A DNA stretch of 64,000 nt from Bacteroidales bacterium. Lineage in GTDB: Bacteria > Bacteroidota > Bacteroidia > Bacteroidales > UBA12077. The stretch lies in contig DAOWGM010000155.1 in NCBI GenBank assembly GCA_030637515.1, forward strand, positions 12,532-76,531. Reading direction: 5' to 3'. Below, piece by piece: positions 1 to 55,636 of this stretch. A model generated the notes under the pieces. That model ran no database searches. It was not told where the DNA came from and worked only from the letters and a program-made list of their open reading frames with translations. Position 1 is the stretch's first letter; every line of letters begins with the position of its first letter. A program made the position numbers and the translations under genes.

Positions 1-3000
1 GATATTAACGAAATTTCACTAACTGCATCAGAAAGGATTGTGTCAAAGAGTCCGTATTTTGATTCATATCATAACATCACCATGGGTTTTGATCGTTTAT
101 TATGGAAAACAGACGACACCAAAATTTACTTTACAAAACGTCGTGGTGCAGCTATTGGAAATGCTACATACACATCTTCAAATTTCTATGATCTTATAGA
201 ATTTGAAAGAATTATGATGCGCGATGATTTTCACCCACTACTTGTAATTAGAAATTTTTCTAAAAGAATTGGTTCTGAAGAATTTTTTGGTGAAGAATTA
301 GCTCGATTTCTTGGATATGATGATTATCAGATAAAGCAAATGCTTATGTTTTTAAGTGTTGATGGTTTTATTTTTTATGATACAGATGAAGACAGGGTTA
401 AAATAAAAAAGAAACTCTATGACTTTATTGAGGCTCGATTCGGGAATATTGATTACGACGTAATTAAATTTAATTCAGTTACCGAAGACTTAACTCACAA
501 CGGAATTCTAAATCTAAAAACCAAAGACCTTGAAATTTACGGTGTACCTCAAATATTCCTTTCCGATTCTCAAAATGTTGTAATCTATCCTAAAAATCAG
601 AAGATTGTAATGAAAAAGAACCGAGATTTTAATTTTGGTGGTATAATTGATGCAGGATTATTTACATTTTTCGGACAAGAATTTGATTTTAGTTACGACA
701 CTTTTAAAATCAACCTTCATAACATTGATTCATTAAGAATTAGAGTACAAACAGATGAACGCGATATGTACAATAATCCTGTATTAGCACATATTAAAAA
801 TACTGTTGAGATAATTACAGGAGAACTACTTATCGACAATCCAAATAATAAATCAGGACTACTTAAGTATCCTCAATATCCTGTTTTTAAAAGTAATGAA
901 AACTCATTTGTATACTATGATGCTTCTACAATTTTTAATGGAGTGTACAAACGTGACAGCTTCTATTTTGAATTAGATCCGTTTACAATTGATAGTCTTG
1001 ACAACTTTAAACCGGAAGGATTAAGATTTGATGGAAATTTTAGTTCAACAAATATATTCCCACCCTTCGATGATGCAATATATATAAGACCTGACTTCTC
1101 TCTTGGTTTTAGGAGAAGTACTCCTGAAGAAGGATTTCCACTTTATTCAGGAAAAGGAACCTATTATGATATAATTGATTTAAGTAACCGAGGATTAAAA
1201 GGTTCCGGAACACTTGAATATCTTACAACTTCAACAAAAACAGATAGTATTATTTTCTTCCCGGATTCTACCAAGATTCTGGCTACAGATTTTACTATTG
1301 CTCAAAAATCCAGTGGAATTGAATTTCCAAATGTAGCTTCAACCGATGTATATATTACATGGTATCCATATGACGATATTATGAAGGCAGAACCTACAAA
1401 AGGACCATTTAATATGTATGGTAATAATTCGTTATTTTCAGGTGCACTCATAATAAAACCAACAGGATTAAGTGGTGGTGGAATAATGAATCTAGAAAAA
1501 GCAGAGTTACGATCAAATCTATTTAGTTTTGAAGCAAACTCCTTTAGTTCTGATACAACGAGCTTTAGCCTCAAATCACTTAATAAGTCTGATTTTAACT
1601 TTATAACCGAAAATCTTAAAGGCAAAATCGATTTTAGCTCACAATCAGGAAACTTCAGTTCAAACGAATCCTTTACGCTTGCGCAATTTCCAAAAAATCT
1701 TTACGTAAGTTACCTTGATAAATTCGATTGGGATATTACGAAGGATGAATTAGCAATAGTATCAAGCCCTCAGATTGACACAACCGCATCGGAAGAAGTT
1801 CAAAAGCTTGCCGAATTAAAAGATGATGATCTTCCAGGTGCACTGTATATGTCAATTCACCGAAGCCAGGATTCCCTTCGATTTTCTTCAACTAAAGCTG
1901 TTTATAGTTTAAAAGACAGCACTATTTTAGCAACCGAAGTTGAATATATTAAAGTTGCAGATGCACTTGTTTATCCAGATGAGAAAGATGTAACCATTGG
2001 TCATATGGCTAAAATTAGCACTTTACAAAAAGCTGAAATTATTGCTAATTCTGAAAATAGATTTCACAGAATTTTTAATGCAAAAGTAAATGTTAAAGGT
2101 CGATACAATTACACAGGTACAGGAGATTACGATTACGAAGACGAGAATGGTGATATTCAGAATATCCACTATACTGATATTTTTATTGATAGTTCATACC
2201 AAACAGTTGCAAAAGGTAGAATTAATGTAGAAGATAATTTCACATTAAGCCCTGTTTTTCAATTTCAGGGTGAGGCAATTCTGTACGCAAATAGAAAGCA
2301 TTTAACTTTCAAGGGAGGTGTAAACCTGGAACATAATTGTCCTGAAACTGGTAAACATTTTGCATATTTTGAAAGTGAAATAAACCCTGATAGCGTTTAT
2401 ATTCCTATATCAAATACTACGCAAAGCATTACAGGACGCGGTTTATTTGCAGCCTCTTTTATAACAAAAGATTCATCGCATATTTATTCCAGATTTATTG
2501 ATAGACGAAGAGATCCTAATGATGTTGCTTTAATTAGAGCAAGCGGGTTTTTATATTATAATAAGAACTCAAATAAGTACATTGTAGCTGAAAAATCGAA
2601 ACTTGATGATCCTGATACTACAGGTAATCTAGTAAATCTCCATAAAGACTTTTGTATACAACATGCTGAAGGGAAAGTTGATCTTGGAATAGAACTTGGA
2701 CAAGTAAAATTAAATCAAGCAGGATCTGTAAATCATTTACTCGATATAAATGAAATAAAAACAGAACTAATCATAGCACTTGATTTCTTTTTCTCTGAAG
2801 ATGCACTGGATACACTTGTAAGTGAAATACAATCGTCTCGCTTATTACAACCTATGAGCAGCTCATCCAGATTTTTCGAAAAAAACATGAACGAACTTGT
2901 AGGGAATAAAGACTACAAAGAGTTTAATAACCAAATTATGTTGTATGCAAACGAAGCCAAATTGCCTGCATCTACGCAGCATACCTTTGTTCTTGGGAAT

Positions 3001-3507
3001 GTTAAATTGCAATGGCATACCGAAACTGGTTCGTACTTAAATTATGGAAAAATTGGAATTGCAACCATTAATAACAAACCTGTAAACAAGTATGTAGAAG
3101 GATACTTTCAGTTACTTAAGAGGCGAAGTGGTGATTTAATGAAATTCTATTTTGAGTTACCAAACAACGAGTATTACTATTTCACCTACTCACGTGGAGT
3201 AATGCAAACTCTTTCTAATAATCAGGATTTTGTTGATGCAATACAAAATATAAAGAAAAAAGCAAGAAAGCAAAGAACACCAAGAGGAGAAACACCTTAC
3301 AGATACATTATTGCCACCGAACAAAACAAAACGCAGTTTATTCGTAATATGAGATTATTTGAAGAAGCTCAAATTGCAAAAGAAGAAGAACTTAAAGAAC
3401 AAGAACAGCAAGAGGTTCCAGCTGAGAAAATACAAGAACAAGAAATTCCTATGGAAGAAAATAAACAAATTAGCGAAGAAGAAGGTAATAATGAAGAAGG
3501 AACTTAA
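1..3507 (+). CDS. Large beta-rich hypothetical protein, 5'-truncated by the window edge
   Basis: The frame is open from base 1 (GAT ATT AAC...) into the 1155-aa ORF, so the true start is upstream. Acidic C-terminal tail. No catalytic motif recognised. Confidence 0.8.
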   Translation, partial: DINEISLTASERIVSKSPYFDSYHNITMGFDRLLWKTDDTKIYFTKRRGAAIGNATYTSSNFYDLIEFERIMMRDDFHPLLVIRNFSKRIGSEEFFGEELARFLGYDDYQIKQMLMFLSVDGFIFYDTDEDRVKIKKKLYDFIEARFGNIDYDVIKFNSVTEDLTHNGILNLKTKDLEIYGVPQIFLSDSQNVVIYPKNQKIVMKKNRDFNFGGIIDAGLFTFFGQEFDFSYDTFKINLHNIDSLRIRVQTDERDMYNNPVLAHIKNTVEIITGELLIDNPNNKSGLLKYPQYPVFKSNENSFVYYDASTIFNGVYKRDSFYFELDPFTIDSLDNFKPEGLRFDGNFSSTNIFPPFDDAIYIRPDFSLGFRRSTPEEGFPLYSGKGTYYDIIDLSNRGLKGSGTLEYLTTSTKTDSIIFFPDSTKILATDFTIAQKSSGIEFPNVASTDVYITWYPYDDIMKAEPTKGPFNMYGNNSLFSGALIIKPTGLSGGGIMNLEKAELRSNLFSFEANSFSSDTTSFSLKSLNKSDFNFITENLKGKIDFSSQSGNFSSNESFTLAQFPKNLYVSYLDKFDWDITKDELAIVSSPQIDTTASEEVQKLAELKDDDLPGALYMSIHRSQDSLRFSSTKAVYSLKDSTILATEVEYIKVADALVYPDEKDVTIGHMAKISTLQKAEIIANSENRFHRIFNAKVNVKGRYNYTGTGDYDYEDENGDIQNIHYTDIFIDSSYQTVAKGRINVEDNFTLSPVFQFQGEAILYANRKHLTFKGGVNLEHNCPETGKHFAYFESEINPDSVYIPISNTTQSITGRGLFAASFITKDSSHIYSRFIDRRRDPNDVALIRASGFLYYNKNSNKYIVAEKSKLDDPDTTGNLVNLHKDFCIQHAEGKVDLGIELGQVKLNQAGSVNHLLDINEIKTELIIALDFFFSEDALDTLVSEIQSSRLLQPMSSSSRFFEKNMNELVGNKDYKEFNNQIMLYANEAKLPASTQHTFVLGNVKLQWHTETGSYLNYGKIGIATINNKPVNKYVEGYFQLLKRRSGDLMKFYFELPNNEYYYFTYSRGVMQTLSNNQDFVDAIQNIKKKARKQRTPRGETPYRYIIATEQNKTQFIRNMRLFEEAQIAKEEELKEQEQQEVPAEKIQEQEIPMEENKQISEEEGNNEEGT

Positions 3508-22692: not shown

Positions 22693-23418
22693 TCAGAATT
22701 GTGGTATTTTCTTTAAATCAATAATATAATCACCCTTTAGCACAGGAATCACTTCTGCAACATCTATTTTGAAACAATAACCAATTATTTTTTCCATACC
22801 CAAAGTCATTAATCTTTTATATTGATACATCGTTTTTATGTATTCTGAAAGATCTTTTTTAGCTAAGTTCCATAATTCAATAGAAGAATTCACAGAGTCA
22901 CTGTTTGATATAAAGTTATTTTGCAATAATTTTTCTGAAAGGGCTCCTGCGAATATTGAATCTTCCGTACAAAAATCTCCTTGCCACCCTGAACATAGAA
23001 TTAGAACATCTTTTTGTTCATGCGATAGATAATTGCTTACTTCCGTTATGTTTAAAAATGAGGCTAAAATTACACTTTTCGCTTTTTTAGCTAAATTAAT
23101 GGTATTTGTCCCATTTGTAGTACTATAAACTAAAGTTTTCCCTCCGATTTTTTCAGGAGTAAAAGTATAAGGTGAATTATCAAAATCGGCAAAATCAACT
23201 TTCTTACCATTTCGTTCAGCAGCAACTAAAAATCCTTTTTCCTTTAATTCTTTTGCTTCATCGAGAGTTTTTACTGGAATTAGCTTATAAAGTCCGTTTT
23301 GAAACATAGTAGTTATAATAGTTGTAGCTCGAAGTACATCCACAATAACAACTATTTTGTTTTCTAATGTATAATTATCAAACAGTTTGGGACTTAAGCA
23401 AACTTCAATTTTATTCAT
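22693..23418 (-). CDS. comB: 2-phosphosulfolactate phosphatase (ComB) family protein
   Basis: VDVLRATT, DNSP, TTNGT and EDxxxAG motifs. Confidence 0.88.
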   Translation of the reverse strand: MNKIEVCLSPKLFDNYTLENKIVVIVDVLRATTIITTMFQNGLYKLIPVKTLDEAKELKEKGFLVAAERNGKKVDFADFDNSPYTFTPEKIGGKTLVYSTTNGTNTINLAKKAKSVILASFLNITEVSNYLSHEQKDVLILCSGWQGDFCTEDSIFAGALSEKLLQNNFISNSDSVNSSIELWNLAKKDLSEYIKTMYQYKRLMTLGMEKIIGYCFKIDVAEVIPVLKGDYIIDLKKIPQF

Positions 23419-30359: not shown

Positions 30360-32711
30360 ATGAAGCAACGAGTTTTATTACTATTATTTTTAAGTTTACT
30401 TATCTCACCTTTTTCCTATTCTCAAGAAAATCTGAGTCAGACTTTACGTGGTGTTGTTGTGGACCATGAATCACAAATTCCATTGCCCGGAGTAAACATT
30501 ATTGTTACTAATTCAAGTCCTCAACAAGGAACAATTAGTAATGAGGAAGGTGTTTTTAGGTTTGATAAAGTACATATTGGCAGAATATCTATTCAAGCAA
30601 GTTTTGTTGGATACAAAACAAAAACTATAGATAATATTGTAATAAGCTCTGCAAAAGAAACCATTCTTAAAATAGCGTTAGAAGAATCTATCACGGAATT
30701 AGATGAAGTAATTATTAAAGCAAGCATTGAAAAAGACAAAGCGATCAATAAGATGGCAACCATAAGTGCTCGTTCTTTTACTGTTGATGAGACCAATCGT
30801 TATCCAGGGAGTTATGGTGATCCGGCAAGAATGGCTGCCAATTATGCGGGAGTAATGTCTGTACGTGATAATAGAAATGATATTATTATTCGTGGAAATT
30901 CATCGACAGGATTGCTTTGGCGACTTGATGGAATTGAAATTCCTAATCCCAATCATTTTGCTGCATCGGGAACAACCGGTGGACCAATAACCATTTTAAA
31001 TAATAATCTACTAACAAATTCAGATTTTTTAACTGGAGCATTTCCTGCTGAATATGGCAATGCACTTGCTGGTGTATTTGACTTAAAGATGCGAACCGGT
31101 AATAATGAAAAGAGAGAATATTGGGCTGAATTTGGTTATAACGGGCTTGAGTTTGGTGCCGAAGGACCTTTTTCTAAAAATACGAATGCTTCTTATTTGA
31201 TTACATACAGATATTCACTCGTTGACATTATTGACCTTTTAGGTGCAGAAGTGGAAACAACCAAATATCAGGATTTGACTTTTAAACTTAACTTCCCCTT
31301 GAAAAAAGGACGTTTAAGTTTCATCGGAATGGGTGGAAAAAGCTACATTGAAATGTTTGACTCCAACGATGATCTGAAAGACTGGACATTTGAAAGCTGG
31401 GGTGAAGATTTGAGTAATGGATCAGATATAGGAACTCTTTCGCTTTCGCACGTTCATTTCTTTGGTACAAAGACCAGATTACAAACAGCACTTTCTGTTT
31501 TTGGATCGCGTGTTACAACAAAAATTGACACTTTAAGCATTTGGAATCCTAACCCTTACAATTGGGCTGGAGAAGAATCTTCTGAAGTAAAAGCAAGTTT
31601 TACTACACATTTGAATTCAAAAATCAATAGTAGAAATATATTCAATTTTGGTTTAAAAGCTGACCGATATTTTGTGAATTTTATGGATAGTAGCATTACA
31701 AATGGTCAGTATAAAGTTGATACAGATGTAAGTGAAGCTTTTGATTTATTCCAGTTATACGTACAATATAAACATAAATTCTCGGACAAAACTGAAATCT
31801 ACTCCGGATTGCATACTCAATATCTTGATTTAAATAATTCATGGTCGTTAGAACCCAGATTTGGTTTTAATTGGAATATGAATGATAAGAACTCAGTGAA
31901 AATTGGTTACGGACTTCATAGCCAGACTCAACTTCGAATTTTATATTTTACACAAACTCAGTTAGCTGATGGATCATCAATATACACAAATAAAAACCTT
32001 GACTTTTCTAAGAGCCATCAGATAATTGCCGGATATGATCATTTATTCAGCGATAATTTGAGATTAAAACTGGAAGTATATTATCAGAATCTGTTTGATA
32101 TTCCTGTTAAGGAAAATCTTCCTGAGTATTCTGTTTTAAATTACGGTGCAGAGTATTTCATTGAACGAATAGATAGCCTATCAAATAATGGAACCGGAGA
32201 AAATTATGGTTTAGAACTTACTCTGGAAAGATTTTTGCAAAATAATTTCTACTTTTTAATTACTGCATCTCTTTACGAATCAACTTATAAAGGATACGAC
32301 GGAGTTAAAAGGAATACCGCGTTCAATGGAAATTTTGCAATAAATGCATTAGGAGGTTATGAAATTCCTATTAGAAAAACCAAAGCAATTTCGATTGGTC
32401 TTAGAACAACATATGCTGGAGGAAGACCATATGTTCCCTATGATGTAAATGCTACTATAAATCATCAATCCGAAGTACTCGATTGGGATAATGCGTATGA
32501 TACACAACAAGATAATTATTTCAGAATAAACCTAAGAATTGGATTTAAACGAAATAAGCCCAAATTTAATGTTGAGCTTGCGATGGATTTACAATACAGA
32601 ACAAATTACACCAGTGTTTATGAATACAGAATAGATCCATTAACAGGCAAAATATATCATAATTACGAAATGGCATTGTATCCAATGGCAAGTTATCGAA
32701 TCCAATTTTAA
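30360..32711 (+). CDS. TonB-dependent receptor with carboxypeptidase-like N-domain
   Basis: Signal peptide, plug motifs (NDIIIRGNS, DGIEIPNPNHF, GAFPAEYGN) and C-terminal YRIQF. Confidence 0.92.
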   Translation: MKQRVLLLLFLSLLISPFSYSQENLSQTLRGVVVDHESQIPLPGVNIIVTNSSPQQGTISNEEGVFRFDKVHIGRISIQASFVGYKTKTIDNIVISSAKETILKIALEESITELDEVIIKASIEKDKAINKMATISARSFTVDETNRYPGSYGDPARMAANYAGVMSVRDNRNDIIIRGNSSTGLLWRLDGIEIPNPNHFAASGTTGGPITILNNNLLTNSDFLTGAFPAEYGNALAGVFDLKMRTGNNEKREYWAEFGYNGLEFGAEGPFSKNTNASYLITYRYSLVDIIDLLGAEVETTKYQDLTFKLNFPLKKGRLSFIGMGGKSYIEMFDSNDDLKDWTFESWGEDLSNGSDIGTLSLSHVHFFGTKTRLQTALSVFGSRVTTKIDTLSIWNPNPYNWAGEESSEVKASFTTHLNSKINSRNIFNFGLKADRYFVNFMDSSITNGQYKVDTDVSEAFDLFQLYVQYKHKFSDKTEIYSGLHTQYLDLNNSWSLEPRFGFNWNMNDKNSVKIGYGLHSQTQLRILYFTQTQLADGSSIYTNKNLDFSKSHQIIAGYDHLFSDNLRLKLEVYYQNLFDIPVKENLPEYSVLNYGAEYFIERIDSLSNNGTGENYGLELTLERFLQNNFYFLITASLYESTYKGYDGVKRNTAFNGNFAINALGGYEIPIRKTKAISIGLRTTYAGGRPYVPYDVNATINHQSEVLDWDNAYDTQQDNYFRINLRIGFKRNKPKFNVELAMDLQYRTNYTSVYEYRIDPLTGKIYHNYEMALYPMASYRIQF

Positions 32712-32845: not shown

Positions 32846-34183
32846 ATGAAAATACTCCTGATAAATACTCCCCGCTCACCACATAACATGATTCTTAAAT
32901 CGGCTCCAGAAGAAGCTAAAAAATATATTCATAAAAGACTCATTGGACCTCCATTAGGATTATTAACTGTTGCAAAAGCTGTTGAAGATCATGATGTTGT
33001 TGTATTTGACACAAAAGGAGAATATGATTTACATCCTGACACACCACCTCTCGACAAACTGGTATTAAAATTGTTAAAAGAACATAAACCTGATGTTGTT
33101 GGAACAACTATAATTGCATCAGAATTTGATTATGCTATTGAAATATTACAGACGGTAAAATCATATAATCCGGAGATTTTAACAGTGGCAGGAGGATTGC
33201 ATGCAACAATTTCACCACATGACTTTACTGATAATGCTGTTGATCTTATTTTACCGGGACAATCGGCACATATTTTCCGAAATGTAATTGAAGCAAAAGA
33301 AAAAGGGGTCGCCTTTGAAAAAGTAAATGGAATTATTATTAATAATGATGGTGTACTAAATAAAACATCTCCCGCAACTGAATATGATTCAGCAGCCGAC
33401 AGCTTTCTAATGCCTGACAGAAAACATCTCGAGAGATGGATTGAAACCTACAAAGTTGGAGGAAATCCTTTTCCATCTACTTATTTATTTACATCCTTAG
33501 GCTGCCCTTACAAATGTACTTTTTGCTCAATATGGTGCCAGTTTAACGGACAATACCTTAAACGAAATATTGAAAGCATTATTGATGAATTAAAACAGGT
33601 AGATGAATATCCTGTTGTACGTTTTGCCGATGCAAATACTATTGTTGATATAAACATGATCGACAAACTCTTTGATAGAATTAATGAGGAAAAAATTAAT
33701 AAAACCTATGTAATGGATATCAGAACCGATACTGCGGTTAAATATCCAAAGCTCATAGAAAAACTTGCAAAAGCAGGATTAAAAGTTGTAATCTGTGGTT
33801 TTGAATCGTTCCGCGAAGAAGAACTTAAAAGATACAATAAGAGTTCTGATGCAAAATTAATACATGAGGCTATAAATATCTTTCATCAAAACGGAATTAT
33901 GCTCCGTGGTAATTATGTTATTCCAAACGATTATGATGAAGATGATTTTAAAGCACTTTCAGATTATACATCATCACACAAAGTTAGCTACGCCGGATAT
34001 ACTATCCTCACTCCTATGCCCGGAACTCCTTTTTATAAAGAAGTTGAAGATCAGATTATCGATTTCGATCTTACAAAATATAACTTCTTTAACAGTGTCT
34101 TGAAAACAAAATTACCACTGGAAAAGTTCTATGAGAATGTGGGTAAATTATGGCTCATAAAAAAAGGAACTGACGTAATTTAG
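32846..34183 (+). CDS. B12-binding radical SAM protein (class B methylase-like)
   Basis: PPLGL and GGLHAT cobalamin domain, GCPYKCTFC, and TPMPGT. Confidence 0.9.
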   Translation: MKILLINTPRSPHNMILKSAPEEAKKYIHKRLIGPPLGLLTVAKAVEDHDVVVFDTKGEYDLHPDTPPLDKLVLKLLKEHKPDVVGTTIIASEFDYAIEILQTVKSYNPEILTVAGGLHATISPHDFTDNAVDLILPGQSAHIFRNVIEAKEKGVAFEKVNGIIINNDGVLNKTSPATEYDSAADSFLMPDRKHLERWIETYKVGGNPFPSTYLFTSLGCPYKCTFCSIWCQFNGQYLKRNIESIIDELKQVDEYPVVRFADANTIVDINMIDKLFDRINEEKINKTYVMDIRTDTAVKYPKLIEKLAKAGLKVVICGFESFREEELKRYNKSSDAKLIHEAINIFHQNGIMLRGNYVIPNDYDEDDFKALSDYTSSHKVSYAGYTILTPMPGTPFYKEVEDQIIDFDLTKYNFFNSVLKTKLPLEKFYENVGKLWLIKKGTDVI

Positions 34184-34991: not shown

Positions 34992-35372
34992 ATGAAAAGT
35001 AAATTCAGAATTACAAGTACAATTACATTAGTATTCTTTCTTTTTCTTTCTCTTGGTAGTTTTGCCAATAAAACATCAGTAAAAATAGTTGCACCCGAAA
35101 CAGTAGATGCAGGAACAGAAGTAACAGTTAAAATTGAAGTTACACATATTGGAAATACAAAAGCTCATTATACCGATTGGGTTGTTGTAAAAGTAAATGG
35201 TGAAGAGTATAAAAAGTGGGAATACACAAAAGACAATTTACCAGACAATCAAAACTTTACATTAGAATTTAAAATTACAGCAAAAACTAATCTTGAAATT
35301 ATTGTAGAAGGAAATTGCAACAAGCATGGCTCAAAAGGAGAAGATAAAGTGAGTATTAAAGTTGAACAATAA
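34992..35372 (+). CDS. Secreted superoxide-reductase-like (desulfoferrodoxin/SORL) domain protein
   Basis: Signal peptide; H-x6-HYxxW and CNKHG metal ligands. Confidence 0.7.
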   Translation: MKSKFRITSTITLVFFLFLSLGSFANKTSVKIVAPETVDAGTEVTVKIEVTHIGNTKAHYTDWVVVKVNGEEYKKWEYTKDNLPDNQNFTLEFKITAKTNLEIIVEGNCNKHGSKGEDKVSIKVEQ

Positions 35373-35424
35373 CACGATAATAATTAATTATATTTAAATA
35401 AAACCAACTATTAAAATTTAAATT

Positions 35425-36036
35425 ATGAAAATTATTAAAACTGTATTTGTTGCACTATTAGTGATGAGTATAACTGCTACGCAGGCTCAAAAAATCAAAG
35501 TTACTAAAGGTGATTTAGCATTTCTAAAAGGTCAGACTGAAGTATTATTAGAATATGATTACAGTAATATGGCTGTTGGTAAATTCGATAAAGAAGCTGA
35601 TTATGTTGCTAAAAAAACAGCTGAATATAATAAGAAGAATGCAGGTACTGGTGATGAGTGGGCTGTAAAATGGGAAGCAGACAGAGAAGGTCGATTCCAC
35701 CCTAAATTTGAAGAATTATTGAATAATTACACTAAAAAAGCTGATTGTAATTTCGATCAAACAAATATTAAAGCTAAATACACATTAATTGTAAAAACAA
35801 CTTTTACTGAACCAGGATTCAATATTGGTATTGTGAAAAAAGATGCCATGATTAATCTTGAAGTAAAATTTGTTGAAACTGAGAATAAAGAAAATGTTTT
35901 AGCTGTTATTACACTGATAAACGTTCCAGGTCGTGGTATGGGAAATGATTATGATACTGGATACAGAATTCAAGAAGCATATGCAAAAGGGGGAAAATCT
36001 CTTGGAGCATACTTGGTTAAAAAAGCTTTTAAATAA
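35425..36036 (+). CDS. Secreted hypothetical protein
   Basis: Signal peptide ending ATQA; 203 aa. Confidence 0.75.
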   Translation: MKIIKTVFVALLVMSITATQAQKIKVTKGDLAFLKGQTEVLLEYDYSNMAVGKFDKEADYVAKKTAEYNKKNAGTGDEWAVKWEADREGRFHPKFEELLNNYTKKADCNFDQTNIKAKYTLIVKTTFTEPGFNIGIVKKDAMINLEVKFVETENKENVLAVITLINVPGRGMGNDYDTGYRIQEAYAKGGKSLGAYLVKKAFK

Positions 36037-36294: not shown

Positions 36295-37194
36295 TTATAT
36301 TTTATGTACTAATTTCAGTTGATAATTACCGCAAATAAAACGAGATATTTTTTTCAAATCCTTTCCTGCCCCACATTCATAAAATTCAGTTACATTCTTT
36401 TCAATTATTATTTGCATCGTTCCAAACCAGTTAATTTTTCTTGTTAAGTTAAAAACCAACTCTTTTTTTAACTCAGCAGCTTCTGTAATTTCTCTTTGAT
36501 CAAATGTTGAGATTATTGGACAACGTGGAGTTTTTATCTGTAAAGAATCTACAAATGAGGCAAATTCATCAGAATATTTCAACATATATTCAGAATGATA
36601 AGGTGTATTTACGGTTAATTCTGTCGTAGAAAGTGCTCCTTCATTCTTAGCTTCTCTTAGTATTTTTTTGATCTCCCTTTTTTTACCTGCAACAACTAAA
36701 GAATACTCATTATTGATATTAATTATTTCTGTTGTATGGTTCGTATTATTAATTAGAATATTAACATCATCTATTGATAATCCTATAATTGATCCCATTC
36801 CATAATCTTCAGACACTCTTAATTCTTCGGTCAGATCAAATGCGGACTTAATAATTCTTATGCCATCAGAAAAAGAAATAGCTCCAGTAGAATATAAAGC
36901 AGCGTAAATACCCATGCTGTATCCAGCAACAAAATTTGGTTTTAGGTCCTTTAATAAAAGAATATCACTTATTGAACAACTAAAAATATAAGCAAGTAGC
37001 TGAGATAGAAATTCATTATTCTGGTATTCGTTGTTTTCGTAGGCAAATTCGGGTAAGTTATAGCCAATAAGCTCAGAAGCTTTATTAATATAGCTTGATA
37101 AACTGAGATTATTTCTTTGTATAAAATCAAGCTCTTTACCGGTAAATTCAGTAATAAATGCAGGAAATACGAATGCTGTTTTATTACTCATCAC
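36295..37194 (-). CDS. FabD-like ACP acyltransferase (atypical)
   Basis: AFVFP, GYSMG (catalytic Ser) and PYHS. Lacks GQG and the malonyl-binding Arg. Confidence 0.82.
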   Translation of the reverse strand: MMSNKTAFVFPAFITEFTGKELDFIQRNNLSLSSYINKASELIGYNLPEFAYENNEYQNNEFLSQLLAYIFSCSISDILLLKDLKPNFVAGYSMGIYAALYSTGAISFSDGIRIIKSAFDLTEELRVSEDYGMGSIIGLSIDDVNILINNTNHTTEIININNEYSLVVAGKKREIKKILREAKNEGALSTTELTVNTPYHSEYMLKYSDEFASFVDSLQIKTPRCPIISTFDQREITEAAELKKELVFNLTRKINWFGTMQIIIEKNVTEFYECGAGKDLKKISRFICGNYQLKLVHKI

Positions 37195-37567
37195 CGTTCT
37201 TTTTTATTAACAAAACGCAGACAACTGCATATTTATCAGCTTGTTGAATATCAGCTTTAATATCTATTATTTTCAAATCATTAAATATGCCATCGATTTT
37301 TTTTGATGTATATATTTTAAAATCAGTTGGTCCTTCAAAAATGATTTCAACATCTTTAAAATCAAAATCGGAATTATTAAGTGCTTTATAAAAAGCTTCT
37401 TTAAAACAAAAGCCTTTTAAAAAGGCTTCTTTACCAAAAACTGAAAAATTTTCAATTTCTTTCGATGTAAAAAGATCATAAATAAGATCCGATAATATTC
37501 CGTTTTCGAAGTAATGCTTATCGAAACGATGAATTTCTTCAATATCGATTCCGCAACCGAATATCAT
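37184..37567 (-). CDS. 4'-phosphopantetheinyl transferase, AcpS type
   Basis: GCGIDIE, FTxxE and FxxKEAFYKAL motifs. Confidence 0.85.
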   Translation of the reverse strand: MIFGCGIDIEEIHRFDKHYFENGILSDLIYDLFTSKEIENFSVFGKEAFLKGFCFKEAFYKALNNSDFDFKDVEIIFEGPTDFKIYTSKKIDGIFNDLKIIDIKADIQQADKYAVVCVLLIKKNGDE

Positions 37568-37578
37568 TTAAATCTATT

Positions 37579-37881
37579 TTATAAGTCTAAAATACTATTC
37601 TCATGTTCAATTATAAGCAATTGCATTTTAATTAATTCACCAATAGTTTTTACCGGATTTTTAACTGCATATTTGCCTATTGTTTTTAGTTCAATATTGA
37701 GACTGTATTTCTTTTTAAAAATTTCTATTAGTTCAAGAAACATTAATGAATCGCCATCTAAATCACCAATAATATTAGAATTCTCCGATATTTCATCAAT
37801 CTCCATTTCACATTCTTCAGCAAAAAATTCAAGAATCACTTCTTTTACTTCTTCGCGCATTTTATCAGTAATCTGAGCCAT
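37579..37881 (-). CDS. Acyl carrier protein (atypical, 100 aa)
   Basis: DLDGDSLMFLEL Ppant site; acidic helices. Confidence 0.85.
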   Translation of the reverse strand: MAQITDKMREEVKEVILEFFAEECEMEIDEISENSNIIGDLDGDSLMFLELIEIFKKKYSLNIELKTIGKYAVKNPVKTIGELIKMQLLIIEHENSILDL

Positions 37882-37890
37882 ATAATTTAT

Positions 37891-38268
37891 TTATTCTGTT
37901 ATCAATTTATTAACTTCTTCTTTTGAAATTTCCTTCCATTTCGGATTTTCAAACTTATCATTGTCAATGTCAAACTCAACTATATAGAACGACTCTTGAT
38001 TAAAGGATAGTTTCGTTTTCTTATTAGGTGTATGCTCAATATAAATTAAACGTTTATAGTCTATTTCATATTTATCACAAAGTTCTTTAGCAAGTTTTGT
38101 GTTCCATTCTGTAATTGATGTACCTGGATTTTCATCAAATAAATCAGTTGCAATTACAATGGTTTCATCTTGTTTCTTTACAATTTTCAAACCACAAATT
38201 GATGGAACATCCCACAAACCATTGAAATTATATATCTGATCCTGATATTTACTAATTTTTGATTCCAT
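37891..38268 (-). CDS. Hypothetical protein within the lipid operon
   Basis: 125-aa ORF tightly packed in the operon; NPGTSIT and IEH motifs. Confidence 0.75.
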   Translation of the reverse strand: MESKISKYQDQIYNFNGLWDVPSICGLKIVKKQDETIVIATDLFDENPGTSITEWNTKLAKELCDKYEIDYKRLIYIEHTPNKKTKLSFNQESFYIVEFDIDNDKFENPKWKEISKEEVNKLITE

Positions 38269-38281
38269 TTTTAAATATCAA

Positions 38282-39556
38282 TTAAGCAATTTTACTTTTT
38301 ACACTTTTACCAAAACTCATTTTTGATAAATCTTTTACTGGTTTTCTGAAAGTACCATCGTCAATCTCACGAGAAACTACTTTTTTCAAAAGCTTAAACA
38401 TTTTTTCTTCCTGTGTTTCATCTTTATAGAAAGTATCCCATGCATATTGATACATTTCTTGCAATCTTTCAGGGCTCATATGCTTTGGTTGATACACAAC
38501 CTGACCGGCATTATAATCGTCCCAATTTTTATTAAAAATTCGGTCTTGTTTTATTAAATCATTATAAGCCTTAGTATGTGGGAATGGAGCCAATACTGTA
38601 AACTCAGCTAAGTCAAGATCAATCTCTAATAAGAAATCTATTAATCTCTTAATATCATCTTCTGTCTGATTATCAAGACCTAACAAAATAGTTCCTTCAA
38701 CACCAATACCATAATCATGATATCTTTTTACTCTTTCTCTTATATAATCAGAAGTATCGAATACTGCTTGATAAACATACCAAGCACCAGCCTGAGCAGC
38801 TAAATCCAGAACTTCCGGTTTATCTTCAATTGTATGACTACACCATTTCTTTTTTAACGGGATCATTGCCTTAAATAAATCTTTTTCCCATTGTGTATCT
38901 TGAGCTAAGGAGTTATCAACTATAAACAGTCTGTTATTATCGATGGTTTCTAGCTCTTCGATAGCCTTATCAATTGGTCTTGGACGAAAATTCCTACCTC
39001 CCAAATATGATACAGCACAAGGATAACAACTATATTTACAACCGCGCGAAGCATGAAATAAATCAACCATCTGCACTCCTTTATGATAGTATAGATCACG
39101 GTTGTAAATTTCTCTACGTGCCGGACCAACTATTTCAATCGGTGGTAAATCATTCATATGATTGTACACTTTTTTCAATTGACCATTTCTAAAATCTTGA
39201 AAAACCTGTTCTATATGCCCTTCAGCCTCACCAAGAAATACAGAATCAGCGTGAAGTATAGTTTCTTCGGCATGCAACATAGTAGAAATACCTCCAAAAA
39301 TTACTTTTTTACCTCTTTTTCTATACTCGTCTGCAATTGCCCAACCACTTTTAATCTGAGTAGTTAACAACATAGAGATACCTACAAAATCCACGTCATC
39401 ATCATAACGCATTTCTTCAAGATTCTGATCTATAAACTCTACCTCTACATCATCAGGAATAGTTGCTGCAAATACTGCTGCTCCGTGAGGTGGCAAATTA
39501 AAAGTTGTTTGCCCTTCCAGCTTTCTCCACTTTGGAAATATTAATTGAAATTTCAT
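38282..39556 (-). CDS. B12-binding radical SAM protein
   Basis: Cobalamin-domain GG and GEAE motifs, SRGCKYSCYPC, and APFPHT. Confidence 0.9.
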   Translation of the reverse strand: MKFQLIFPKWRKLEGQTTFNLPPHGAAVFAATIPDDVEVEFIDQNLEEMRYDDDVDFVGISMLLTTQIKSGWAIADEYRKRGKKVIFGGISTMLHAEETILHADSVFLGEAEGHIEQVFQDFRNGQLKKVYNHMNDLPPIEIVGPARREIYNRDLYYHKGVQMVDLFHASRGCKYSCYPCAVSYLGGRNFRPRPIDKAIEELETIDNNRLFIVDNSLAQDTQWEKDLFKAMIPLKKKWCSHTIEDKPEVLDLAAQAGAWYVYQAVFDTSDYIRERVKRYHDYGIGVEGTILLGLDNQTEDDIKRLIDFLLEIDLDLAEFTVLAPFPHTKAYNDLIKQDRIFNKNWDDYNAGQVVYQPKHMSPERLQEMYQYAWDTFYKDETQEEKMFKLLKKVVSREIDDGTFRKPVKDLSKMSFGKSVKSKIA

Positions 39557-39607
39557 ATGTTTTGTTTTGTCTGCTGTACAAGCTGATAAAATTATTAAAA
39601 AAAAATA

Positions 39608-40696
39608 CTAATGCAAACTATATTCCTTCTCTGTCATCCACGACTTTAGGATGTTATTGATTTCCAGCTTGTCGCTTTCTGGCATTGTATATTTATTTTT
39701 TTGGTATTCCTTTACCGAAATCAAAAAATCACTTATTTGTTTCTCAAATCCTTCCAAAAATTCAACATTCAACTGCTTGTATATTGATTTAATTTCTTTT
39801 GTAGGATTCTTTTCTAAATCCTCAAATTTTAATTCGTAGAATCTTTCCTTAGGAAGCTTCTTTACATCTTCATCAATTTTTTTAAGCATTTTAAATAACA
39901 AAGAACTAGTGTCCTGAATATTAGGTTTTACCCATTTTCCATTCATTGCATTTTGCTTACCAACAATATCCCACATTCTTATTGTTGAAGGAACAACCTT
40001 GTGTGGATGTCGCATAATATGAATATACCTCGCTTTTGGAAAGATTTCATTTAAAATATCAATACGAAAAGAATGAAACGGACTCTTTATCAGTATAGTA
40101 TTATTATTCTCGAGAGTCAATTTTTTGTAAAAATATTTTACAGCTTCTTTCCATTCTTCTAATTTCTTTCCTTCAGGTAAAAAATCAGGAAATTGATCTA
40201 AGAAATATTCTTTTGATTTTGGAAAAATTAAGCGCTCCAATGGTGAATAACTACACAATCTAAAAAGTGCGTATTCATCTTCCAAAGGCTCATCCATACT
40301 GAGTTTCACCTGATCCATTGGTCGAGTTCCCTTTAATGCTCGACCCATAATAGGTTCATATGACTTTCGGGAAGTTAGAAAACTATCGGGTATTGATCCT
40401 TGAAATACATTAGTAGTTACCAAATTAGCGTCAAGAGCCAACAGTTGATGTAAAAATGTACTTCCTGTTCTCCAGTGTCCAATAATTATTATTGGATCTT
40501 CAGGTAATTTATGAGTTTTAATTTTATTGGCATAAACCGACTTTTCTTTTCTGTAAAATATAGAAGCCCACACTCCATTTTGAAAAAGAAATAAGAACCT
40601 TACCAGATATTTTGGATACAACGACATTCCATTTTTCATAATAAGTTTTATGAACCTGGATAGTCTCATCCCTGCTATCAGGTAAGCACTCTTCAT
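39608..40696 (-). CDS. PAPS-dependent sulfotransferase (Sulfotransfer_3 type)
   Basis: 5'-PSB loop GHWRTGSTFL, RPMD, PxEDE, KSPxH, RHP and FEDL motifs. Confidence 0.9.
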   Translation of the reverse strand: MKSAYLIAGMRLSRFIKLIMKNGMSLYPKYLVRFLFLFQNGVWASIFYRKEKSVYANKIKTHKLPEDPIIIIGHWRTGSTFLHQLLALDANLVTTNVFQGSIPDSFLTSRKSYEPIMGRALKGTRPMDQVKLSMDEPLEDEYALFRLCSYSPLERLIFPKSKEYFLDQFPDFLPEGKKLEEWKEAVKYFYKKLTLENNNTILIKSPFHSFRIDILNEIFPKARYIHIMRHPHKVVPSTIRMWDIVGKQNAMNGKWVKPNIQDTSSLLFKMLKKIDEDVKKLPKERFYELKFEDLEKNPTKEIKSIYKQLNVEFLEGFEKQISDFLISVKEYQKNKYTMPESDKLEINNILKSWMTEKEYSLH

Positions 40697-40733
40697 ATTC
40701 AGTTTGATTTGAATTAATTACTTAAAAGAGATT

Positions 40734-41009
40734 TTATTCCGATTTGCTTTTAATAAAATCAGCAATCGAATTTACATCTTTTAGTACCTCACGAGCCAAA
40801 TTTTGATCATCAATGCGTACTTTAAAATCTCTCTGAATTGCCATAACAAGTTCTATTGCATCGATTGAATCTAATCCTAAAGTATTGTCTCCTCCGAAAA
40901 GTGGTAGGTCATCTTCAATATCCTGCGGAGTTATATCCTGTATATTTAATGTATCAATAATCATTTTTTTAATATCCGCCTTCAAATCTGTTCCAATATT
41001 TTCTCCCAT
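40734..41009 (-). CDS. Acyl carrier protein (aryl-polyene type)
   Basis: PLFGGDNTLGLDSIDAIEL; paralogous to 55382-55636. Confidence 0.92.
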   Translation of the reverse strand: MGENIGTDLKADIKKMIIDTLNIQDITPQDIEDDLPLFGGDNTLGLDSIDAIELVMAIQRDFKVRIDDQNLAREVLKDVNSIADFIKSKSE

Positions 41010-41022
41010 TCTATCTTAAATA

Positions 41023-42036
41023 TTAAATATTACTAACTACTGTTTTTAATTCATTATAAAAAGCTTCCTCAGAATCAGCTCTTTCATTAATCATTTGACC
41101 TAGTTCCTGAAGTTTTTCAGGTCCAAGATCTCTGTTTTTTCCAATTTTGGCTGCAAAGTAAGAAATATTTCTCCAACCATCTCCTATTTCCATCATCTTT
41201 TTTGACATATCTTCTAATTCTTTATTCTGTAGAATTTCAGATGCTTGACGAAGAAATGTGGCATATAAAAAACGGAATCCACCCCCACCTGTTCCTTGAT
41301 CTTCAAGAAAAACATTTATTTTCATCACCTCATGCGATAAATGATCAATATCTCTTGTTAATTTTGGCCATCCTTGTAGTTTCTTAGCAAAAGTTCGAAT
41401 ACCTCGCACACCAATAAACGGAGGTTGAACACCCACCATATTATTAACAGTATTTTTTATTGCAACAGGAATTAGCTTCTTATAATCAACTGTTTCAGGC
41501 ACAGATTCTATATAATATCTAAATCCTTTTGGAGCTAAATATCCACCAGCAAAACGAGCCTTTCTTAAATTATCTTTATGAATTCGAGCAAATTTGGGGT
41601 AATAGCTATCACTAACAATATATTCATCACCTTCTTTTCCAACTATAGTAATAAAGTGAATATTAGCATGAACTCTTTCCCATTGAGGAATATAATCCAT
41701 ATAATAAAAGTCTACTTGACAAGCAACAGGTATGTTATTCTCTAAAAGACTGTCAAGTTCTTGCTCAGCTTCATCTTGATTTTTAAATCGTTGAGTATTA
41801 AATTTAATATCAGTTCTCTTTGCAATTTTCTTTCTTAATTTCCCTGGTTTTGTTCTTAAAATAAACATAGGAAAATTAAGATTTGGTGTTCGGCTTAAAT
41901 AGCCAAAATATAAACCACTACCCAAACCAAAAATCATTGGTTCAGTAATTTCCAGACCCTGATGTTTTAGTAATGCTGTTAATGAGCCAGACTCACAATG
42001 AGCTGCCATATTGTGTTTAAAAGATTCTATTATCAT
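41023..42036 (-). CDS. BtrH N-terminal domain / DUF4872 protein (papain-like acyltransferase or peptidase), copy 1
   Basis: HCESG, EPMIFGLGSG, H and SD triad residues, and EDQGTGGGGFRFLYA. Confidence 0.85.
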   Translation of the reverse strand: MIIESFKHNMAAHCESGSLTALLKHQGLEITEPMIFGLGSGLYFGYLSRTPNLNFPMFILRTKPGKLRKKIAKRTDIKFNTQRFKNQDEAEQELDSLLENNIPVACQVDFYYMDYIPQWERVHANIHFITIVGKEGDEYIVSDSYYPKFARIHKDNLRKARFAGGYLAPKGFRYYIESVPETVDYKKLIPVAIKNTVNNMVGVQPPFIGVRGIRTFAKKLQGWPKLTRDIDHLSHEVMKINVFLEDQGTGGGGFRFLYATFLRQASEILQNKELEDMSKKMMEIGDGWRNISYFAAKIGKNRDLGPEKLQELGQMINERADSEEAFYNELKTVVSNI

Positions 42037-42533
42037 TTTTTGTTTAATTCTATTTTTGTGATAACTACGAAAGGATTTTCTGTTCTTGTTTGTTTAACCA
42101 GTATTGGTTGCTTCTGTTTATCTGACTCCGCTTTGGTCTCATTATCTTCAACTACAATAGCTTGAAATAAATTAGAAACCGGTATGTCAAAAGCATATGC
42201 ATATTTATATAAGTCTGCCAATTTTGCTTTTCTGAATGATTTTACTTTTTGATGTTGTTTCACCTTAAATACAGGAATCCCGGTTCTTCGAGATAATTCA
42301 ACATCATTAAAATCATGAATTAGCTTATAAAAATAAACTGGGGTAATTTCATTTTTTTTGAGTTTCTCTAGTAATGAATTTCTTAATTTCATCATTTTCT
42401 CCCAGAAATCGTCAAGATAATTTTTGGTTATATACGAGCCTGTCTGAATCGGACCAAATGTTCCATCTTCCTTTTCAACATACATTATAAGTTGTTGAGG
42501 TTCGTAATCAATATAAGCATCTTTTTCTTTCAT
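42033..42533 (-). CDS. Hypothetical protein with C-terminal HTH-like region, copy 1
   Basis: Paralog of 49529-49933; stop overlaps the BtrH start by 4 nt. Confidence 0.75.
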   Translation of the reverse strand: MKEKDAYIDYEPQQLIMYVEKEDGTFGPIQTGSYITKNYLDDFWEKMMKLRNSLLEKLKKNEITPVYFYKLIHDFNDVELSRRTGIPVFKVKQHQKVKSFRKAKLADLYKYAYAFDIPVSNLFQAIVVEDNETKAESDKQKQPILVKQTRTENPFVVITKIELNKK

Positions 42534-42838
42534 GTAAATTATATTTCAATCCGATTCAAAAATTATGTTTTCGGCCGATGATTTAGATTCTTACAGCAAT
42601 GTAGTAAAAACTATGCCATTTTTTTGGTCTACTAAATTAATTCAAATTAAATTATTGCCAAAATTAATACAAACAAACAATTTGAAATTTAAATGATTTA
42701 ACCACTATTTATAAGCATTATAGAAGTATTTACAAATTAATATTTCATAAAATAATCTGTTCATGTAACCATATTGATATTTGATAAAAAATATTGACTA
42801 AAAGGATTCGTAATCTAAGGAATATTAAAAGTATTTAT

Positions 42839-42846
42839 TAAATTTG
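42839..42846 (+). promoter_or_regulatory. Candidate -7 element for the TAL-PKS operon
   Basis: TAAATTTG within the 384-bp divergent intergenic region. Confidence 0.45.
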
Positions 42847-42917
42847 CATACTTACAAAATGACAGATGAACTAAACGGCTAATTATTAGCTACTTTAACG
42901 TATAACGAAGAATAAAA

Positions 42918-55381: not shown

Positions 55382-55636
55382 ATGGAAGAGTTAATAATAA
55401 AAATCAAGCAACAGGTAATTGAGGTTTTAAATTTAGAAGATGTTGAACCTGCTGATATAGATACAGATTCACCTCTTTTTGGTGATGGTTTGGGACTTGA
55501 TTCGATTGATGCATTAGAGTTAATAGTTTTGTTAGAAAAACAATATGGAATAAAAATTGAAGATCCAAAAGATGGTAAAAAGATTTTCTATTCAATAAGA
55601 ACCATAGCAGAATATATCGAAGAAAAAAAGAAGTAA
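55382..55636 (+). CDS. Acyl carrier protein (aryl-polyene type)
   Basis: PLFGDGLGLDSIDALEL motif. Confidence 0.94.
   Translation: MEELIIKIKQQVIEVLNLEDVEPADIDTDSPLFGDGLGLDSIDALELIVLLEKQYGIKIEDPKDGKKIFYSIRTIAEYIEEKKK

Follow-up and report, generated by a model that had tools for sequence, protein, structure and literature searches.

A probable nine-gene operon carrying a DarG-DarH-sulfotransferase cassette beside a flexirubin-type gene cluster of uncultured Bacteroidales

Described flexirubin clusters and the nine-gene locus

Few biosynthetic gene clusters are as common in Bacteroidota as those for flexirubins and aryl polyenes. Here we describe nine genes at positions 36295-42533 of a 64,000-nucleotide stretch from an uncultured Bacteroidales bacterium (GCA_030637515.1, contig DAOWGM010000155.1, positions 12,532 to 76,531; this whole stretch is called the window), whose genus is represented by metagenome-assembled genomes (MAGs) only. 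The nine genes include a sulfotransferase (ST) next to relatives of DarG and DarH and adjoin a cluster that is predicted to be of the flexirubin type. The closest described systems are the flexirubin/dialkylresorcinol clusters of Chitinophaga pinensis (flxA-flxY, darA-darJ) and Flavobacterium johnsoniae, as given in the accessible parts of the relevant papers (PMC3992019, PMC12968099). In those parts DarG and DarH are described only as hypothetical and BtrH-like proteins (PMC3949708, PMC12968099, PMC3992019). The source cluster resembles the described ones in encoding FlxA, FlxB, DarG, DarH, ABC and ABC-2 proteins, LolA2, LolB2 and FlxY, with DarB on another contig. In contrast, the published gene tables, as far as accessible, contain no sulfotransferase, no B12-binding radical S-adenosylmethionine (rSAM) enzyme, no dedicated acyltransferase (AT) or phosphopantetheinyl transferase (PPTase) and no second DarG-DarH pair (PMC12968099, PMC3992019). 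No published description of the arrangement was found in the accessible main texts, as distinct from supplements, of the literature on flexirubin, DarH, BtrH, sulfotransferases and sulfated resorcinols, and no paper was found that links flexirubin with a sulfotransferase. The impression of an earlier reading of the window from its letters alone (the sequence-only reading), that such a module is absent from described clusters, thus agrees with the printed record.

The region is filled by nine co-directional open reading frames (ORFs), listed here in the order of transcription with the acyl carrier proteins abbreviated as ACP.

42033-42533, minus strand: DarG2, small protein of 166 aa placed in the DarG family by a sub-threshold NCBIfam match
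41023-42036, minus strand: DarH2, BtrH-related papain-fold acyltransferase of 337 aa (Pfam and NCBIfam)
40734-41009, minus strand: ACP1, carrier protein of 91 aa (Pfam PP-binding, 2.5e-08)
39608-40696, minus strand: ST, Sulfotransfer_3 protein of 362 aa (Pfam, E 4.7e-31)
38282-39556, minus strand: rSAM_L, B12-binding rSAM enzyme of 424 aa (Pfam and NCBIfam)
37891-38268, minus strand: unk125, 125 aa, of no known family or fold (ORF map)
37579-37881, minus strand: ACP2, carrier protein of the second chain-building set, 100 aa (Pfam PP-binding, 4.6e-07)
37184-37567, minus strand: AcpS-type PPTase of 127 aa (PF01648, 40.9 bits, cut-off 25)
36295-37194, minus strand: AT, atypical FabD-like acyltransferase of 299 aa (Acyl_transf_1, 42.1 bits)

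The spacers between them are, in order, −4, 13, 37, 51, 13, 9, 11 and −11 nt. Tight packing, the Pfam and NCBIfam domain assignments, linkage to the flexirubin-type cluster and the lack of a ketosynthase (KS) in the operon, the last checked by ORF and family scans, all bear out what had been read from the sequence. The same nine genes stand in identical order in 17 of 24 loci of close relatives, and the remaining seven are cut by contig ends, with no rearrangement seen. Within the genus, median identity is 89% for rSAM_L, 88% for DarH2, 77% for ST and 53% for AT. Among ST-anchored loci, however, the nine-gene arrangement is confined to those whose ST is at least 62% identical, which corresponds to the genus. 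The nine genes are probably one operon, a genus-specific fusion of three conserved blocks within a flexirubin-type supercluster of about 65-70 kb.

Three blocks and their distribution

Block 1 (42533-39608) is a near-invariant four-gene cassette of DarG2, DarH2, ACP1 and the ST, which is of the 3'-phosphoadenosine 5'-phosphosulfate (PAPS) type. A scan of species-level genomes anchored on the ST profile gave 241 encoding stretches, nearly all in uncultured Bacteroidota, and the best 80 that were examined included 52 loci from outside the genus (non-genus loci). Where the contig left room for the gene in question, ACP1 was directly upstream of ST in 44 of 47 non-genus loci, DarH2 was present in 44 of 45 and DarG2 lay upstream of DarH2 in 39 of 41, but rSAM_L followed ST directly in only 20 of 47. 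A BtrH-like acyltransferase with its own ACP, as the sequence-only reading had picked out, is therefore the conserved heart of the operon.

Some loci vary this cassette. In a Bacteroidota MAG (L152, 8473-12921) the order is DarG2, DarH2, rSAM_L, ACP1, ST, with rSAM_L inside the cassette and no adjacent unk125 match. At L137:7048-8909 two genes stand between ACP1 and ST, one for a 204-aa signal-peptide protein and the other a 363-aa ORF that looks like a COMT-like O-methyltransferase by eye only. At L121:7333-8847 DarH2 and ACP1 are apparently in pieces, and ORFs of 96 and 118 aa between ACP1 and ST are nucleotidyltransferase/HEPN-like, again by eye only.

Block 2 (39556-37891), consisting of rSAM_L and unk125, is a general accessory pair of aryl-polyene and flexirubin clusters of anaerobes and is not specific to the branch considered here. 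A contig scan with one genome per species gave 569 rSAM_L stretches, and 73 of the best 80, which were examined, were non-genus loci. Among these, unk125 was directly downstream of rSAM_L in 60 of 71 with room, whereas ST stood directly before rSAM_L in only 10 of the 73 and anywhere in the locus in only 13. The enzyme had been taken for the operon's own tailoring enzyme, an assignment that these counts do not sustain. The loci include Tannerella forsythia, Prevotellaceae, Muribaculaceae, Rikenellaceae and rumen MAGs; in rumen and gut MAGs the rSAM_L-unk125 pair lies between MMPL/acyltransferase (FlxU/FlxV-type) or flavoprotein genes and a FlxY-type ligase, and in eight loci (L073-L077, L135, L140, L147) the order is rSAM_L-unk125-TBDR, the last being a gene for a TonB-dependent-receptor-like protein. 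In the T. forsythia strains ATCC 43037 and OH1426 (L126, L102) an rSAM_L ortholog of 72-73% identity is followed immediately by DarG, DarH, ABC and ABC-2 genes, with no unk125 match adjoining it, and the genome of L102 (G466) also carries two DarB-like genes just under the cut-off.

By its domains (B12-binding, 33.6 bits against a cut-off of 32.1; Radical_SAM, 28.8 bits, just under 29.5) and its CxxxCxxC motif, of which C173, C177 and C180 are invariant in 14 orthologs, rSAM_L is predicted to be a class B, cobalamin-binding rSAM enzyme. It reaches no NCBIfam equivalog (best TIGR04013, 58.8 against 251 bits). It is the most conserved protein of the operon, with 84-93% identity within the genus and 68-80% in other families, and the protein database holds very many orthologs of 74-82% identity. 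A phylum-wide sample of 400 genomes gave no rSAM_L ortholog (best match 35% identical), which was a sampling miss, as the protein database and the species-level contig scan yielded hundreds. As a default guess, the enzyme might carry out an oxygen-independent C-H functionalisation, for example a C-methylation. Its partner unk125 matched no Pfam or NCBIfam family. An alignment-based AlphaFold2 (AF2) model of unk125 reached a pLDDT (predicted local distance difference test) of 78.3, but a Foldseek search against the PDB returned nothing at E ≤ 1e-3, a wide VIA-align search gave a best Z of 5.5, which is within the noise range, and the best ESM Atlas score (0.78) was below lead level. Longer or fused forms of unk125 were not found, though this is weak evidence.

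With its carrier and its loading enzymes, block 3 (37881-36295) makes up one end of a second chain-building set. The ACP2 of other families shares 61-75% identity (46% in G456) and lies between a condensing KS and PPTase/AT, and a PPTase homologue stands between ACP2 and AT in several non-genus loci. The order crotonase (ECH), PPTase, ECH, KS III-like, (rSAM), the dehydrogenase HCDH, the condensing ketosynthase KSx, ACP2, (PPTase), AT, rSAM0 recurs in L153, L155-L163, L166 and L168, and an ortholog of rSAM0, a third B12-binding rSAM gene near the operon, adjoins AT with 62-68% identity in L155, L158-L161, L165, L168 and L170. In the source genome, KSx, HCDH, the KS III-like gene, two crotonases and a second PPTase lie about 50 kb from AT, at the other end of the same cluster (KSx and HCDH at C168:88.6-91.3 kb; KSx 60% identical to the copy in a Rikenellaceae MAG). 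The KS III-like gene is on the ST contig in four of five genus genomes, 35-57 kb from ST. The second PPTase, also AcpS-type and 127 aa long, is encoded between the two crotonase genes (L065:18683-19066, on the contig of the window but outside it), so the supercluster encodes two dedicated PPTases. Beside HCDH-KSx-ACP2-PPTase-AT in the Rikenellaceae MAG (L153:11599-14820) there are also two divergent genes for B12-binding rSAM proteins with DUF4070 (528 and 477 aa), which have no counterpart in the window's genome region.

Co-occurrence was scored in 50 of the 73 non-genus rSAM_L-bearing genomes, the other 23 being left out, and AT orthologs were called at a score of at least 159 bits (housekeeping FabD reached at most 113 bits). 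ST orthologs were present in 17 of the 50. AT orthologs were found in all 17 ST-positive genomes (in G452 as fragments only) but in just 1 of 33 ST-negative ones, and the KS III-like ortholog in 16 of 17 against 1 of 33; for DarB the figures were 9 of 17 and 2 of 33. Many of these genomes have the AT set 12-26 kb from the ST cassette or on another contig. The counts argue for a common pathway of blocks 1 and 3 and against a dependence of block 2 on either. Since blocks 1 and 3 share a phyletic pattern, we read them as one extra 'dar-like' branch, which would build, sulfate and attach a second lipid moiety.

The sequence-only reading differed in taking the nine genes as a self-contained module that alone loads, tailors and off-loads a second acyl unit onto the product of the adjoining cluster (the right arm), and it expected them to stay linked in relatives. 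The nine genes are indeed co-transcribable, with their order kept in those 17 of 24 close relatives, and their products cover carrier, priming, loading and transfer functions. Nevertheless, in the 20 non-genus loci where rSAM_L immediately follows ST, unk125 is never followed by ACP2-PPTase-AT, and 33 of the 50 genomes have rSAM_L/unk125 without ST or the other genes. The partner KS set is about 50 kb away in the source genome, and elsewhere ACP2-PPTase-AT is contiguous with KS, HCDH, crotonases and the KS III-like gene, all of which co-occur with the cassette. The AT, moreover, is without malonyl-binding residues. The three blocks are thus separated in relatives, although blocks 1 and 3 are still found together within genomes, and we regard a self-contained module as highly doubtful.

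Proteins of the cassette and of the second chain-building set

DarG2 scored below threshold with both relevant NCBIfam models (DarG_fam, NF053536, 45.8 bits, cut-off 70; flexirubin_DarG, 48.6 bits, cut-off 170) but can be aligned with the right-arm DarG over its full length (28% identity), and by score it appears to be a diverged relative of DarG rather than a member of the family. It consists of an N-terminal domain, a putative helix-turn-helix (HTH) region of the Cro/C1-like type and a tail of about 40 aa, and its stop overlaps the DarH2 start by 4 nt. The label 'HTH-like' that the 166-aa protein had been given is weakly supported: of 27 proteins of the DarG2/DarG family, 15 have sub-threshold matches to HTH_26 (Cro/C1; best E 3.5e-4), but the copy in the window has none at E ≤ 1. 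DarG2-DarH2 is the same two-gene unit as DarG-DarH.

DarH2 matches Pfam BtrH_N (1.1e-40) and DUF4872 (1.2e-46), scores above the cut-off with the NCBIfam DarH model (NF053550, 326.1 bits, cut-off 300) and is 39% identical to the right-arm DarH. Four residues, H13, C14, H123 and H127, show no variation among 25 aligned DarH2/DarH sequences and, by comparison with the clan, are the putative catalytic residues. In a tree, DarH2 forms a separate, long-stemmed clade with 100/100 support (22 rows against 11 of right-arm-type DarH), in which the groups were assigned by best BLAST hit and their labels are thus tied to similarity. DarH2 is therefore probably an ancient paralog of the right-arm DarH, and we predict it to be a carrier-protein-dependent cysteine acyltransferase. 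A comparable arrangement might be that of BtrH in butirosin biosynthesis, which we take to be an ACP:aminoglycoside acyltransferase, in that DarH2 has a BtrH_N domain and lies beside a dedicated ACP. The match of the DarH2 profile to solved BtrH_N-domain proteins is weak (9qvj, E 0.002). In contrast to the butirosin system, the source locus has no aminoglycoside pathway, no ATP-grasp ligase and no BtrG-type partner, and DarH2 contains DUF4872, with a DarG-type protein and a sulfotransferase encoded alongside. Both carrier proteins, ACP1 and ACP2, have the serine in a DS(I/L) motif, and the nearest relative of ACP1 is the right-arm ACP at 55382-55636 (38% identity).

The ST has an N-terminal extension of about 65 aa, and in 16 aligned orthologs the GHWRTGST (PAPS) loop, RPxD, P-E-D-E and H..R.P..V.PS are invariant. 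Its profile matched in the PDB, in order, 2z6v (1.3e-17), 2zq5 (2.3e-14), the OLS ST 4gox (1.1e-9) and the CurM ST 4gbm (3.3e-9). The first two are labelled 'putative uncharacterized protein', and we take them to be the mycobacterial Stf9 and Stf1. As the best profile matches they cover part of the N-terminal extension as well as the PAPS loop, although their identity to the operon ST is low, and we know of no carrier protein or acyltransferase context for the mycobacterial Stf-type enzymes. A distant ST (24-25% identical) in another family, beside a PEMT-LGT fusion and an ABC transporter, was also considered, but its context gave no useful lead.

The CurM and OLS terminal modules have the order KS-AT-ketoreductase (KR)-ACP-ST-thioesterase (TE) and form alkenes by sulfate-activated decarboxylation. 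The ST of the operon likewise follows a carrier protein immediately, and KS, AT and a beta-hydroxy-forming reductase co-occur with it, but the operon proteins are discrete, there is no TE, and a papain-fold acyltransferase lies beside the ACP instead. In a dissociated version of this logic, sulfate would be a leaving group: a beta-hydroxyacyl-ACP1 made by KSx/HCDH would be sulfated by ST, and DarH2 would replace the thioesterase and release the chain with elimination, decarboxylation or cyclisation, giving a sulfate-free product. ACP1-ST is the tightest pair of the cassette (44 of 47 loci) and stays intact even in L152, where rSAM_L stands between DarH2 and ACP1. The OLS and CurM STs are two of only four PDB sulfotransferases matched at E < 1e-8, and a condensing KS, a beta-hydroxy-forming dehydrogenase, an AT and carrier proteins all co-occur with ST. 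The mycobacterial Stf-type entries, however, are closer and outscore CurM/OLS (1e-17 against 1e-9), no alpha/beta-hydrolase thioesterase follows ST, and KS and dehydrogenase adjoin ST in no examined locus. The OLS and CurM STs, furthermore, align to the C-terminal half only, so that the catalytic residues of the CurM ST are not comparable. Sulfate as a leaving group is therefore an unlikely explanation.

The AT had been counted as loading machinery. It stays below the cut-off for both FabD (156.1 bits, cut-off 260.9) and MdcH (156.6 bits, cut-off 297.9), and its nearest PDB entry is PksC (2.5e-28). Positions were taken from alignments with PksC and 3ezo, and the identities of the FabD motifs and the roles of their residues, including malonyl binding by Arg117, are as we understand them. 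In 38 sequences the position of Arg117 is occupied by Ala (34), Val (3) or Ile (1) and that of His91 by Tyr in 34, and the motifs read GYSMG for GHSxG and FPAF for FPGQGSQ, but the Ser93-His200 dyad is kept in all 38. The AT is not a normal malonyl loader; it may instead load a non-malonyl acyl group or shuttle acyl groups between carriers, and it might also be a hydrolase.

Among the distal enzymes, KSx has the complete Cys-His-His triad (the Cys in ACSSS and both His motifs). The KS III-like protein is most similar to the StlD/DarB family of chain-joining ketosynthases, whose pathways lead to dialkylresorcinols, cyclohexanediones and stilbenes, and, as in those pathways, is flanked by enzymes able to supply beta-keto or enoyl partners. 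Its top PDB matches are FabH, StlD, 4v2p and 4yuc (CorB), the last two of which are presumably chain-joining ketosynthases as well. However, with 111.6 bits it falls far short of the family cut-off (450), it shares only 25% identity with the DarB of the same genome, and in pairwise alignment the His/Asn positions of DarB read Asn/Tyr. One ortholog (G443:C14:52229-53239) has a single in-frame TGA, and another genome holds a second, broken copy (G442:C4:2178419-2179281) with one TAA and three TGA. The combination of AT, ACP, KS, KS III-like protein and two crotonases was also compared with the beta-branching cassette of HMG-CoA (3-hydroxy-3-methylglutaryl coenzyme A) synthase (HCS), which we rejected: the Cys of KSx is intact, and the KS III-like protein scores 36.8 bits against the 244 of the HMG-CoA synthase model.

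The surrounding supercluster and the proposed branch

The operon is flanked by the following features.

30360-32711, plus strand: TBDR, TonB-dependent-receptor-like outer-membrane protein (CarboxypepD_reg and Plug)
32846-34183, plus strand: rSAM0, the third B12-binding rSAM enzyme, HpnR/BchE-like (Pfam and NCBIfam)
34992-36036, plus strand: desulfoferrodoxin-like 126-aa gene (Dfx, Pfam) and a 203-aa gene of no family (h203)
42534-42917, no strand: divergent intergenic region of 384 nt between DarG2 and flxA, the gene for tyrosine ammonia-lyase (TAL) (ORF map)
42918-64000, plus strand: right arm, flexirubin-type core (NCBIfam equivalogs above cut-off)

TBDR, rSAM0, Dfx and h203 are likewise kept in the genus loci, and in non-genus loci h203 and Dfx occur near TBDR or FlxY and co-travel with the system. 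The right arm encodes, first, FlxA, FlxB, KS, ACP, an LpxL-like protein, a TIGR04072 rSAM enzyme, a dehydratase (DH), DarG, DarH, ABC and ABC-2, and then TE, KS, ACP, a KS/chain-length factor (CLF), a deacetylase, LolA2, LolB2, a FabA-like protein, GT2 and MMPL. Past the window the same contig continues with an MMPL/acyltransferase/methyltransferase fusion, CrtI-like flavoproteins, a C45 N-terminal nucleophile (Ntn) hydrolase and FlxY, and then the KSx/HCDH/KS III-like/crotonase block. NCBIfam scores were 820.2 bits for FlxA (cut-off 700), 408 for FlxB (cut-off 340), 468 for DarH, 230 for LolA2, 140 for LolB2 and, outside the window, 711.3 for FlxY (cut-off 520). By its FlxA, FlxB and FlxY equivalogs the cluster around the operon is thus predicted to be flexirubin-type. 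DarB (609.2 bits, cut-off 550) is on contig C5, unlinked to this cluster, and the ORF upstream of it matches no NCBIfam model; no DarA-type aromatase was identified, though no search with a DarA model was made. The source genome encodes an adenosine 5'-phosphosulfate (APS) kinase.

Both arms presumably have their promoters in the 384-nt region. Patterns of sigma-70 promoters and of terminators showed no excess over shuffled sequence, the sigma-70 pattern being uninformative for Bacteroidota, and an Rfam scan of the window matched no family. Three further genes of the source genome were noted in passing. Beside DarB on contig C5 a 390-aa ORF (L070:1914-3086) matches adenylate kinase models in two stretches and is apparently a tandem double adenylate kinase. 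A ComB-type 2-phosphosulfolactate phosphatase (PF04029, 3.8e-69; 22693-23418, minus strand) lies in the window amid genes of serine and one-carbon metabolism, about 13 kb from the ST operon, and an ORF of 1155 aa at 40-3507 (plus strand) has no Pfam family at E ≤ 1e-5.

The following account of the dar-like branch, including its substrates, the sequence of its steps and the sulfate in its product, is inferred from the gene content, conservation, block structure, paralogy, co-occurrence and active-site residues. ACP1 would hold a hydroxyl-bearing acyl intermediate, which ST would O-sulfate either on the carrier or, as product, after transfer. The pigment lipid would provide the acceptor to which DarH2 transfers the acyl group of ACP1, while ACP2, AT and the distal enzymes would build the partner chain, and the rSAM enzymes would carry out oxygen-free C-H chemistry. 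A plausible and likely product is a lipid moiety, sulfated or sulfate-activated, that is attached to the pigment. A more specific proposal, which we find unlikely, is that the cassette is a free-standing counterpart of sulfate activation: ST would sulfate a hydroxyacyl or aryl group tethered to ACP1, and DarH2 would release or transfer the sulfated thioester. Together with the Cys-only StlD/DarB-like KS set and the B12 rSAM enzymes, this might offer anaerobic Bacteroidota a way, independent of oxygen, to make a sulfated or sulfate-processed, C-alkylated ring lipid that replaces or decorates the dialkylresorcinol half of flexirubin.

Several observations weigh against a branch that makes a second lipid. 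FlxY ligase is the next recognised gene after ST in 24 of the 52 non-genus loci, and the cassette abuts flxA in the window, both of which point to the aryl starter end of the polyene instead. ACP1 might then carry 4-coumaroyl made by FlxA/FlxY, ST would sulfate its phenol, as protection or as a permanent charge, and DarH2 would pass the unit between coenzyme A (CoA), ACP1 and the polyene synthase. Such a starter-unit module would fit with the divergent region shared by cassette and flxA, with the position of the cassette directly after TAL-KR-KS-LpxL in L135 and L137, with the ORF between ACP1 and ST in L137, which by eye only could be a COMT-like phenol O-methyltransferase, and with the similarity of ACP1 to the ACP of the polyene arm. 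However, polyene initiation in the canonical flexirubin producers, according to the accessible part of their description, involves no cassette of this kind (PMC3992019). The cassette also co-occurs with an entire second chain-building set, for which a starter module would have no use, and the solved relatives of ST are not phenol sulfotransferases. We therefore think a starter-unit module decidedly unlikely.

Other points also count against the dar-like branch. The PDB entries closest to ST, 2z6v and 2zq5, have no assigned substrate, and similarity to them is silent on whether the substrate of ST is carrier-bound or free. Because DarB is present in only 9 of the 17 ST-positive genomes, the acceptor would not always be a dialkylresorcinol made by DarB. 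The compared genomes are related, incomplete MAGs, so that the counts reflect a shared pattern rather than independent events and absences are blurred. Within the genus, a strong ST ortholog was found in 17 of 24 genomes, and two of the seven that have none are 96-98% complete, which makes the branch dispensable or accessory. The idea that the cassette generally replaces DarA/DarB was rejected, as DarB is present in the source genome and in those nine ST-positive genomes.

The feature is real and conserved, with no description found in print, and should be classed with the flexirubin/dar cluster as a variant rather than as a new kind of system. The analysis by blocks shows which genes to co-express: the nine-gene operon would probably fail to function unless the distal block of KS, dehydrogenase and KS III-like genes is added. 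The rSAM_L/unk125 pair is a separate question, common to gut, rumen and oral Bacteroidales including T. forsythia. The second, anciently diverged DarG-DarH pair, being tied to its own ACP and ST, offers a handle on the role of such pairs, which may be carrier-dependent acyl transfer, and its link to ST predicts a sulfated or sulfate-processed pigment lipid that has yet to be described.

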